Assembly (NCBI GenBank): GCA_951406725.2
Contig: CATOCA020000042.1
Location: 1 to 22,286, forward strand
DNA from: Octopus vulgaris
Taxonomy: Eukaryota
Direction: 5' to 3'
DNA length: 22,286 nucleotides
This document shows, one piece after another, positions 195 to 17,243 of the stretch. The notes beneath the pieces were generated by a model that worked only from the letters and a program-made list of their open reading frames with translations, was not told where the DNA came from and did no database searches. The position numbers and the translations under genes were made by a program. Position 1 is the stretch's first letter, and every line of letters starts with the position of its first letter.

Positions 195-382
195 ATATAT
201 ATATGTATATATATATATATATATATATATATATATATATATGTATATATATATATATATGTATATATATATATATATATATATATATATATATGTATAT
301 ATATATATGTATATATATATATATATGTATATATATATATATATGTATATATATATATATATATGTATATATATATATATAT
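195..382. repeat. (TA)n microsatellite with A>G interruptions on + strand
   Basis: Direct reading; TA dinucleotide run with recurring ATGTAT interruptions. Confidence 0.98.
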
Positions 383-2530
383 AATGTTGACTGGTCCTTT
401 ACACATACACACATCTCCACCAACCATAAAACATCTTGGCAGATCTTTGTAGACACCGTCACAGACATATGTGCAAAACACTCCCCACCAAGACCTGTGA
501 ACAAAAAGTGCAGAATCCCCCAAAACAGAAAAACCATTATCAGAAAAATAAAAAGAACAAACAAAAAAATTAACAAACTAAAGTACTGCCAACAGCAACA
601 CACACATTCGACGGCTATCGCACTGCTTGAATCCAAAAAATATAACCTCCAACAATGCATGAAGTCCCTCATCAATAACCAAAGATCAGCTGAGGAGAAG
701 TGGGCCATTGAAAAAATCAAACTCAACCCCAAAGTGTTCTTTTCATTTGCGAGGAAACGCAGGGTCACTGTCTCCACTGTAGGCCCTCTAATTGACGAAA
801 CTGGCACTCTCCAAGATAATGCCAAATCCATGGCCGAGATACTGCAGAAACAATACTGCTCTGTTTTCAGCAATCCTGATATGGCCGATCTGGGCTGTAT
901 CAGTGATGTCAACCCCCAACACATCTATATCGGACATAACGTTTAGTGCCCCTGATGTCTTAGCAGCGATAAACGAAATATATATATATATATATATCAG
1001 CAGTAGGCCCCGATAGGTTCCCTGCTTGTGTCCTGAAGGTGTGTCGACACCAACTTGCATCTCCCCTTGCTAATCTGTGGAGAAACTCACTGGATGCTGG
1101 CTATATTCCAAAACCTTCTGTCCCAGTCTGTTGTCCCAGTTTTCAAAAAGGGAAACAAGTCCCTTGCAGTGAATTACCGTCCGATCTCACTCACCTCTCA
1201 TATCATCAAGGTATTTGAGAGGGTGGTGAGATCTCAAATAACCCAATTCCTGGAAAGCAACAGACGGCTGATCTCCAACCAACATGGGTTCCGTAATGGA
1301 AGGGACTGCCTAACGCAGCTCCTGCATCACTTTGAGGACATTTTGAGAGCTTTGGGAGAGGGTTCCAACACCGATGTCATCTACCTTGATTTCAGTAAGG
1401 CCTTTGACAGGGTCGATCACAAGATCCTATTGAAAAAACTATCCAACATTGGTGTCTCTGGAAAGTTACTGAAATGGATTAAGTGTTTCCTAGACAGATC
1501 TCAACATGTTGTAGTTGAAGGGGTAAAATCAAGCCCAGCCAAAGTCAGTAGTGGCGTTCCGCAAGGCACTGTGTTGGGCCCACTTCTTTCATCATTTACA
1601 TTAATGACATTAATGACATCATCAAGCACAGCAACATAAAAATCTTTGCAGATGACTCCAAGCTACAGAAGGTCATAAATGAGGCGAGTGACCGGACATG
1701 CCTTCAGTCAGATCTACTGGCTGTTATCCAATGCGCAGAAAAAAACAATATGCTGCTGAACGAGGATAAATTTGAGCTAATCCACTTTGGAAAAGGGAGG
1801 ATGCCCTGAAACTCCCATACTCCCTTCCTTCAGGTGAAATTCTCACGGCGTCCAACAACATCAGAGACTTGGGAGTAATTGTGGACAACAACGTAAGCTG
1901 GGCCACTCATATAAACACCAAAGTTGACATGGCCCGCAGAATGTGTTCCTGGATTCTCAGAACTTTCCAGTCGAGAGATATCCACACCATTATCCTTCTC
2001 TTCTCCACTTTTGCCCGACCCCACCTTGAATACTGCTGTCCACTGTGGTCTCCCTACACAAAACAAAATATGAGAATTGAAGCTCCCCAAAGGTCAATCA
2101 CAAAAAAGATAGATGGCATGTCAGACCTTGACTATTGGGGTCGACTAGAAAAGCTAAAACTCTATTCTCTCCAACGTCGTCGTGAGCGCTACATCATCTG
2201 CATGATGTGGAAAATATTCCATCAGCATTGCCCAAATGATGTTGGCATCACCTTCAAGGTGCATCCAAGGCTTGGCCCCGTGCCATCCGTCCCAAAACAA
2301 AAATCGCACTCTCATCTCATAACAACAATACGGCACAATTATTTCACCTCAATTGGCCCCGCTCTTTAACATTACACCAAAACACATCAAAACAGAAACT
2401 GACCACTATAGGGTTCAAGAAGTCTTTGGACAGATTCCTTCAAGACAATCCCGGATAAACCCCCTACACCCGGATATGTCTCTGTAAACAATAACTCTCT
2501 ACTTGAGTGGGCCATAGTGCCCAAATTCTG
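383..2530 (+). pseudogene. Frameshifted reverse transcriptase (ORF2) remnant of family A; endonuclease domain absent
   Basis: RT homology split across ORFs 203-946 (non-repeat part), 792-1016, 1055-1639, 1869-2369; FADD motif near 1645-1656 in another frame; 3' boundary approximate. Confidence 0.85.
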
Positions 2531-2625
2531 ACTTGAAAGACTTCACCAGGTGGTGCTATTAAGTTAGACATGGCCTGGGCCAATAATGGCCAAAAACCTA
2601 TCAGAAGTTATTCAAAGTATCAAAG
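383..2625 (+). mobile_element. Family A CR1-group LINE, 5'-truncated and degraded
   Basis: Fragmented ORF2 motifs: [92 protein letters not shown]; 3' UTR ending CAAAGTATCAAAGT; (TA)n on both sides; homologous to but clearly diverged from family B. Confidence 0.92.
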
Positions 2626-3162
2626 TATATATATATATATATATATATATATATATATATATATATATATATATATATATATATATATATATATATATAT
2701 ATATATATATATATATATATATATATATATATATATGTATATATATATATGTATATATATATGTATATGTATATATATATATATGTATATGTATATATAT
2801 ATATGTATATATATATATATATATATATATATATATATATATGTATATATATATATGTATATGTATATATATATATATATATATATATATATATATATAT
2901 ATATATACATATATATATGTATATATATATATATGTATATATATATATGTATATATATATATGTATATATATATATATATATATATATATATATATATAT
3001 ATATATATATATGTATATATATATATATATATATATATGTATATATATATATGTATATATATGTACATATATATGTGATATATATATATATATATATATA
3101 TATATATATATGTATATATATATATATATATGGTATATATATATGTATATATATATACATAT
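2626..3162. repeat. (TA)n microsatellite, pure next to the family A tail and then interrupted
   Basis: Direct reading. Confidence 0.97.
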
Positions 3163-3646
3163 GTAAAGAACAAAGTATATATGACATATATAGAGCGGAA
3201 GAGGCAATATCGTACATATATGCACATATATACACATATATTTTTACATATATATATGGCAAGGATATGGGCGCAGATATCACCCCCATGGACGCCCATA
3301 CATATATATATATATATATATATGCTCCTACCGGCTATATATACAAAAAGAGGAAAAACTATATATAAGGGACAAGGCAGCCATACATAGGCAAACCTAT
3401 ATCCATATGCCAAAAAGGATGATATACATAGCAGCGCACACGGGTATGTAGGTGAAAGGTGCCTGTATATGGAGATAGGTGTAGGCTGCCGCTTTATATA
3501 CCGTGGATGCCACAGATATAACCATCGAAAGGAAATGGGATGGACCAGGCATCACCTGCCCCAAAACGGAGGTACGCAGATGTGGTGCGTACCACAAACC
3601 ACCAACGTGTTGTTGAAAGGGCAGCTGCTGAGCAGGAATCTTTTTT

Positions 3647-15782: not shown

Positions 15783-16268
15783 TACATGTGAGTTCTCTAG
15801 ACATCCTATTGGTTGAGGCTATACTCATGAAGTAATGTAGATAATTAAGTAACATAAACAGATTTCTAAAGTTCATTAAAGTTCTTTAAAGATGATGTAC
15901 AGTCTTATCACAGAATTTTAAAAAAGTTTTAATAGCATCACAGAGAAGGTGACCTAAAGGATTAATTCACCCTCTCTGTAATGCTAATAAGCAGGAATTG
16001 AGACACACCTCGTTGTGATTAACAATGGATAAATTTGTCGTCTGTGAGTATGTAATACCTCATCATATCTCTGGAAATTCATATGTGCACTATGGATTAG
16101 GTCACCTTCTCTGTGATGCTATTAAAACTTTTTAAAATTCTGTGATAAGACTGTACATCATCTTTAAAGAACTTTAATGAACTTTAGAAATCTGTTTATG
16201 TTACTTAATTATCTACATTACTTCATGAGTATAGCCTCAACCAATAGGATGTCTAGAGAACTCATGTA

Positions 16269-16359
16269 TTTTAGCTGATGAGTACGGGACACGTTTATAT
16301 GCTGTAATTTTTGCAACTTTTAATAAAGCCTGTCCTTGTATGAAACGATTGTACTAAAA
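16269..16359 (+). ncRNA. Type I hammerhead ribozyme (minimal helix III)
   Basis: Helix I TTTTAG/CTAAAA; core CTGATGA (16275-16281); helix II GTACGGGACA/TGTCCTTGTAT; GAAAC (16342-16346); loop GATT; cleavage triplet GTA (16351-16353). Confidence 0.85.
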
Positions 16360-16377
16360 CCTATCCATTCTTGTTGC

Positions 16378-17164
16378 ATATATATATATATATATATATA
16401 TATATATATATATATATATATATATATATATATATATATATATATATATATATATACATATATATATATATATATATACATATATATATATATATATATA
16501 TATATATATATATATATATATATATATATATACATATATATATATATATATATATATATATATATATATATATATATATATATACATATATATATATATA
16601 TATATATATATATATATATATATATATATATATATATATATATATATATATATATATATATATATATATATATATATATATATATATATATATATATATA
16701 TATATATATATATATATATATATATTATATATATATATATATATATATATATATATATAGATAGATATATATATAGATACATATATATATATATATACAC
16801 ATATATATATATATACATATATATATATATACACATATACATATATATATATACATATACATATATATATATATATATAGATAGATATATATATACATAT
16901 ATATATATATATATACATATATATATATACATATATATATATATATATATATACATATATATATATATATATATATATATATATACATATACATATATAT
17001 ATATATATATATATATATATACATATACATATATATATATATATATATATATATATATATATATATATATATATATATACATATACATATATATAGATAT
17101 ATATATATATATACATATATATATATATATATATATATATATATATACATATACATATATATAT
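16378..17164. repeat. (TA)n microsatellite with T>C interruptions on + strand
   Basis: Direct reading; ATACAT interruptions, none of ATGTAT type. Confidence 0.98.
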
Positions 17165-17243
17165 GATTGATTGATTGATTGATCCATCCAGCCTATGAGC
17201 TGTATGCTGGGGCACCGCCATTTGGTGTTGCTACTTGGTTTTA

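Follow-up and report, generated by a model that had tools for sequence, protein, structure and literature searches.

Two families of LINEs, here called A and B, lie among (TA)n tracts in a stretch of the Octopus vulgaris genome, and we favour the reading, to which we assign a probability of about 0.55, that both are abundant LINEs of the CR1-group type, which insert by ordinary target priming with a short AT/TA bias and pile up in the abundant TA arrays of their host. The initial annotation had proposed dedicated targeting of (TA)n; this is not supported for the 3' end of the family A type, from which more than 100 separate contigs per sequencing run continue into long flanks, nor for the relatives of the two families in their clade, whose visible flanks are not TA.

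The window, i.e. the whole stretch of DNA that was analysed, comprises 22,286 nt (contig CATOCA020000042.1, positions 1-22,286, assembly GCA_951406725.2) and contains one copy of family A on the forward strand and three copies of family B (B1 forward, B2 and B3 reverse) with TA tracts in between. These tracts make up 18.8% of the window and 4137 of its 7251 non-LINE bases (57%). The features are as follows.

195-383, no strand: (TA)n tract, 5' flank of the family A copy, read from the sequence
384-2628, forward: family A LINE with a 5'-truncated, frameshifted ORF2 (linker, RT, C-terminus), a folded 3'UTR and the tail TCAAAGTA twice, from Pfam, folding and the tree
978-997, no strand: (AT)10 within the family A ORF2, frame broken
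2626-3162, no strand: (TA)n tract flanking family A on the 3' side
~3163-3560, forward: LINE/TA blend 5' of B1, from an exact-match chain to B3 (20954 to 20439)
3561-6846 (copy ~3164-6846), forward: B1, with the end of ORF1, ORF2 at 3791-6749 (one frameshift near 4245), 3'UTR and tail (AATC)7
6846-8681, no strand: 1.8-kb (TA)n tract between B1 and B2 (TA at 6846-8663, degenerate towards 8681)
8682-13162, reverse: B2, with a repeat-rich 5'UTR, ORF1 and APE+RT, 3'-truncated within ORF2 at 8682, no tail
13164-13878, no strand: degenerate (TA)n tract adjoining B2 on its 5' side
13879-15446, no strand: TA-flanked non-LINE repeat(s), serving as internal control
15447-15541, no strand: TA tract between the two non-LINE segments
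15542-16377, no strand: non-LINE segment with an inverted repeat and TA on both sides, internal control
16378-17164, no strand: (TA)n tract flanking B3 on the 3' side
17165-~21790, reverse: B3, with tail (AATC)5, 5'UTR, ORF1 and an ORF2 that has several indels of 1-9 bp
20162-21051, reverse: ORF1 of family B (in B3), spread over two overlapping frames as in B2, with a weak Myb/SANT-like N-terminus and a CCCH zinc finger, from Pfam

It had been claimed that all seven resolvable LINE ends abut TA. The tracts and tails had been placed correctly, but two of the seven positions, 8682 and ~3163, are not insertion ends. At the former, ORF2 of B2 breaks off ~480 bp before its end, at a TA-like internal motif, with neither 3'UTR nor tail behind it, for which reason the position was rejected as an insertion end. 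Between ~3163 and 3560, colinear exact pieces (9-35 bp) of the B3 ORF1 are interleaved with TA-like letters, which, judged from the letters themselves, is likely an artefact of an assembly consensus of mixed reads; owing to this blend, B1 has no clear 5' end there. The true ends that remain are three complete tails (2628, 6846 and 17165) and two 5' ends (383 and 13163), representing at most four insertions. TA was, on the other hand, correctly taken for flank and not tail: TA as the elements' own tail was rejected because other tail units are present, namely 2.1 copies of TCAAAGTA in family A (2612-2628), AATC x7.2 in B1 (6818-6846) and, as read on the forward strand, TGAT x5 in B3 (17164-17183). 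The 5' side of B3, absent from the earlier list of ends, has no clear TA tract beside it; the homology to B2 stops at ~21760, and is followed by ~50 non-TA bases and then by degenerate 5' repeats.

Within the window, each of the three true tails and each of the two clean 5' ends adjoins TA, B1 and B3 meet it in the same phase, and the family A copy lies between two TA tracts, the arrangement expected of an insertion into a tract. These observations run counter to the reading that we favour. How far they exceed chance depends on the background: taken against the TA share of the non-LINE bases in the window (57%), p is 0.19 for three of three tails and 0.11 for four of four insertions, and against an assumed genome background of 10% it is 1e-3 and 1e-4, respectively, for a window that was itself noticed for its TA content. 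Both non-LINE segments are flanked by TA as well, so TA adjacency in this window is common to non-LINE elements. Furthermore, B1 and B3 differ at only 4 of 2792 aligned sites (0.14%), and the junctions at 6845 and 17165 therefore may not be independent; B2 differs from B1 and B3 at 56 and 53 sites (~2%), which rules it out as a fold-back of either. The near-identity of B1 and B3 could stem from a duplication, from membership in a very young subfamily, or from polishing that ran across copies.

The last of these leads to the explanation that most of the TA adjacency arose in the assembly, where noisy long reads of many near-identical copies would have been joined or polished across TA into chimeric copies. 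We think this rather improbable. It would account for the LINE/TA blend at ~3163-3560, for the many 1-9 bp indels between copies only 0.14% apart, and for the cut of B2 at a TA-like motif; but the joins at 2628, 6846 and 17165 run cleanly from tail to TA behind complete 3'UTRs, B2 is 2% from B1 and B3 and folds back on neither, and even a join at a TA tract would require that each LINE touched TA on that side.

With 46% identity over 405 RT-core positions, the two families are distinct, as had been annotated; the APE-type label fits family B, which has APE and RT, but the family A copy has RT only (Pfam match E=2e-22), since it is truncated directly after the APE region and the endonuclease falls outside the copy. 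The (AT)10 at 978-997 in its broken frame is later than the LINE, whether it arose there or was inserted. The 3'UTR of family A folds significantly (z=-4.4), and that of family B forms the same double hairpin with a z of -0.9 (not significant). In contigs of sequencing runs, the host-wide consensus tail of the family-A-type end is ATC(T/A)AAGTT, twice. Family B is very abundant in the host, with 5,026-15,020 contigs per run on 960 bases of its 3' end (4 runs).

The ORF2 of family B matches PF14529, PF03372 and PF00078, and the best solved-structure match of its profile is L1 ORF2p. The APE motifs are intact, and by eye the domain carries no insert that would distinguish it from its protein relatives; a single-sequence search of solved structures with the APE gave no match. 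ORF1 matches Myb_DNA-bind_4 (E=0.025) and zf_CCCH_4 (E=2e-4), both below the curated cut-offs. Its N-terminus, modelled as three helices at low confidence (pLDDT 63), has one protein match only, among longer proteins, and the fold search with this model gave no match at E<=0.001.

The initial annotation had placed both families in the CR1 group, and they do look like CR1-group LINEs; the RT tree was built from unnamed relatives rather than from named CR1, L2, Crack or Daphne references. An ORF2 with an N-terminal APE and a non-LTR RT was found in family B (in family A, RT only), and a short tandem tail with a structured 3'UTR takes the place of poly-A. In the excerpts of PMC13343379 and PMC2817409, the group (CR1, L2, Crack, Daphne, Kiri, Zenon) is described with an APE+RT ORF2, 5' truncation, a structured and conserved 3'UTR, a tail of few short-unit copies, enrichment in AT-rich DNA and no visible target-site duplication, all as in the present families; the tail of chicken CR1, with 2-4 copies of an 8-mer in the text at hand, is similar to that of family A. 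On the other hand, the CCCH finger and the weak Myb-like domain of the family B ORF1 differ from the CR1 group, and CCCH has 0 occurrences in the accessible portion of PMC4120745. CR1-Zenon, which lacks ORF1 and ends in poly-A according to the excerpt of PMC13343379, was considered and rejected: the tail unit is AATC in family B and an 8-9-mer in family A, and an ORF1 is present in family B.

In the RT tree (58 sequences, with distant loci thinned to every sixth and the relatives unnamed), families A and B fall into one clade with a support of 0.976, which also includes 11 marine contigs as well as the 20 top-ranking protein matches. The named matches are a protein of Argonauta hians (57%) and a gene model of Octopus sinensis (72%) with an ORF1 fragment, in which ORF1 is in a single frame. 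The marine-invertebrate loci of this clade are like A and B in their doubled 9-11-mer tails rich in AAAGT/AATGT and in the CCCH-like motifs upstream of ORF2 (5 of 11 loci), but unlike them in their visible 3' flanks, which are not TA. A tail with its flank is readable in five of the 11 loci, and in none of the five (L001, judged by eye; L003, L006, L007 and L082) is that flank TA; the tail of L045 reaches the contig end, and the other five loci have no 3' end. Among the broader relatives, 160 loci were examined with a rough tail finder, which returned 73 tails; after 10 at contig ends had been dropped, none of the remaining 63 had a TA run of at least 12 in the next 30 bases after the tail. 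These relatives come from other hosts of TA content not given, and mostly from short-read contigs. In viral contigs, one weak and irrelevant locus was found.

Host-wide flanks were read from contigs of 4 of the 20 runs containing the sequence, which were aligned to the 3' ends; the runs have genomic copies in common, and one of them, X1, may be where the DNA of the window comes from. For family B, the tail region (17141-17196) was left out as repeat, and the flank readings hence concern the family-A-type end only. Behind position 2595, 106, 173, 151 and 139 separate contigs with loose ends were found in runs X1, X15, X4 and X2, with median lengths of 77, 48, 112 and 109 letters, respectively, of which ~21 letters are tail. 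Of the contigs at single-copy depth, three extend 75, 102 and 134 letters beyond 2595 and another 1,110 letters beyond 2630, the last having matched the family A copy of the window up to that position. Among the 17 listed pieces that reach at least 2590, four run on, and 13 stop within 34 letters beyond the matched part and are uninformative. Since contigs would stop or collapse in a long tract of pure TA, those with long overhangs probably represent copies with flanks other than tracts; the overhangs were read up to letter 30, and longer flanks are judged by their length. Depth also peaks at 2547-2595, where foreign upstream ends occur, so other elements have the same 3' end, and SINEs or sister subfamilies that share it may account for some of the loose ends.

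The letters directly behind the tail show a short bias in phase with TA. In all four runs the majority consensus after the family-A-type tail is ATAT; the further consensus letters keep the TA phase at 3, 6, 5 and 7 of 7 positions per run (21 of 28), and the full 9-letter alternation is seen in one run. In a simulation limited to separate contigs, with the tail number held constant, a share of ~5% in-phase long-TA flanks fits these data and a share of 20% or above does not. Short-read contigs collapse TA-flanked copies into few records, by which the TA-flanked share is undercounted, so that these contigs demonstrate the existence of non-TA flanks rather than their share. Strict TA targeting is unlikely for the family-A-type 3' end.

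That microsatellite-specific non-LTR elements exist in the R1, Tx1 and R4 groups, as had been stated, agrees with the accessible parts of PMC3812793 and PMC4494074, which list Mino (AC), Waldo (ACAY), Kibi (TC), Koshi (TTC) and Dong (TAA), with TA absent from the targets. These elements sit inside microsatellites as A and B do, but their lineages are R1, Tx1 and R4, and their specificity, unlike the putative one of A and B, is established over many copies. Strict targeting would place nearly all copies in the target, whereas at the family-A-type 3' end 106-173 contigs per run have long overhangs; a specialist's target would also be common to phylogenetic neighbours, and here it was found in none of the five readable clade loci. 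According to the excerpt of PMC4494074, a family is called specific when >20% of its flanks are of one target type; the family-A-type end reaches ~5% among separate contigs, the collapsed TA copies being uncounted, and in this genome a mild bias could pass that bar. Passive accumulation has a precedent in Waldo-A/B near CA repeats (PMC3812793, in part). In the literature that we covered, with Repbase Reports and most subscription papers outside that coverage, no CR1-group specialist for TA was found. The endonuclease of Dong is restriction-like.

A true preference of family B, and perhaps of a subfamily of A, for (TA)n is the main competitor of the favoured reading, though a good deal less probable: alternating TA, or the cruciform that it forms, would be the site recognised by the APE or by the Myb/SANT-like domain of ORF1, much as other microsatellites are recognised by Mino, Waldo, Kibi and Koshi. 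Consistent with it are the position in TA of both B tails (two of two) and of the 5' end of B2, with the same junction phase, the TA on either side of family A, the in-phase ATAT in four of four runs with the 9-letter alternation in one, and the weak Myb-like match (E=0.025) with its three-helix model. It is weakened by the near-identity of B1 and B3, by an in-window chance of 0.11-0.33, by the clade relatives without TA flanks, by the many long flanks at the A-type end, and by the ORF1 fold search without a match at E<=0.001. In its narrower form, slightly less probable still, family B would be a CR1-group LINE in which a (TA)n preference evolved in octopods by way of the APE or the Myb/SANT-like ORF1, its sister lineages being non-specific; this would be a young, testable origin of microsatellite targeting in a group generally regarded as non-specific. 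If family B does prefer (TA)n, both a new target (TA) and a new lineage (the CR1 group) would be added to the few microsatellite-specific LINEs, with close non-specific relatives at hand for mapping what changed.

Breaks made by others in TA arrays, through nicking by the GIY-YIG endonuclease of Penelope elements or host resolution of TA cruciforms, might also have been used by these LINEs while their own APE stood idle there, but we regard this as very improbable. Its appeal comes from the Naiad and Hydra Penelope-like elements, which insert in (TA)n, the Naiads being present in Octopus (PMC8557442, in part), and from TA at internal LINE breaks, i.e. at 978-997 and in two deletion joints of host family B contigs, which are filled with TA letters; the intact APE motifs of family B and the three complete tails, as with normal priming, tell against it. 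Naiad and Hydra, like the rice Micron MITE (PMC3812793, in part), resemble A and B in that their insertions lie in (TA)n, as the tails of A and B adjoin TA, but the former two carry a GIY-YIG endonuclease and Micron is a DNA transposon, so neither is an APE LINE.

Under the favoured reading of ordinary insertion with a short bias, the APE would nick AT-rich DNA loosely, and at the nick the end of the tail RNA (...AAGUUAU or ...AAUCA) would pair with a small number of AT bases. Pairing of the 3' tail is known in L2/CR1. The accessible text of PMC4760211 treats microhomology at 5' junctions only. TA arrays would be dense in such sites and tolerant of insertions, and slippage, deletion and long-read consensus errors may later have added the TA junctions at 978, 3163 and 8682. 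In the excerpts available, (AT)n exceeds 10% of the genome of the squid Doryteuthis (PMC9068888), and among the surveyed genomes that of octopus ranks first in SSR number, with 7.6 million (PMC6387519). With a short TA bias and TA arrays so abundant, LINEs and other mobile elements would be expected to pile up in these arrays. The value of the result would then be modest, namely that TA arrays are a common sink in cephalopod genomes, together with a warning that LINE/TA junctions can be assembly blends. As to the two non-LINE segments of the window, the repeat(s) at 13879-15446 have ends with some resemblance to those of Helitrons, and the neighbouring segment carries its inverted repeat of 285 bp (98.6%) at 15673-16377.

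The ORF1 of family B, the LINE family with an APE- and RT-bearing ORF2, joins a CCCH finger to a weak Myb/SANT-like domain, and is preceded by a 5'UTR in which GA-rich units of 35 and 127-131 bp stand in tandem, together with AT/CA-rich stretches that differ from copy to copy.

20162-21051 (-, copy B3) and 11283-12169 (-, copy B2): family B ORF1, weak Myb/SANT-like domain and CCCH finger
12177-13162 and 21070-22010: family B 5'UTR, GA-rich tandem units
15673-16377: inverted repeat, 285-bp arms, 98.6% identical, ~140-bp spacer
13879-15446: non-coding repeat(s) starting with ACTAG, at a TA tract

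An identical frame break interrupts ORF1 in B2 and B3, and an Octopus sinensis ORF1 fragment reads through uninterrupted at this point. The last 79 residues of an O. sinensis LPIN3 gene model (P0135) match family B ORF1, and this LINE-like end is probably a mis-annotated exon. Of the 11 marine contigs that group with families A and B in the RT tree, 5 carry CCCH-like motifs upstream of ORF2.

At the 3' end of family A, contig depth peaks at window 2547-2595, reaching in sequencing run X15 up to about 45-fold that at 2523-2534, and the contigs aligned there carry several unrelated upstream loose ends. Family A shares its 3' hairpin end with further abundant elements, which may be SINEs or sister LINEs.

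Eighty LINE-bearing loci (L082-L161) lie within bacterial and archaeal genome records, 11 of them in one Metamycoplasmataceae bin; most likely, they represent eukaryotic contamination of MAGs.

At window 3164-3560, LINE and TA sequence are mixed letter by letter, a blend that is probably the visible mark of a mixed-read consensus, from which other TA-junction findings in the same assembly may suffer.

Non-LINE repeats also lie beside TA tracts. One arm of the inverted repeat stops at such a tract, and the non-coding repeat(s), possibly Helitron-like, have ends that resemble each other at two places, near 14273 and near 15447, as well as internal repeats of ~100 and ~322 bp.
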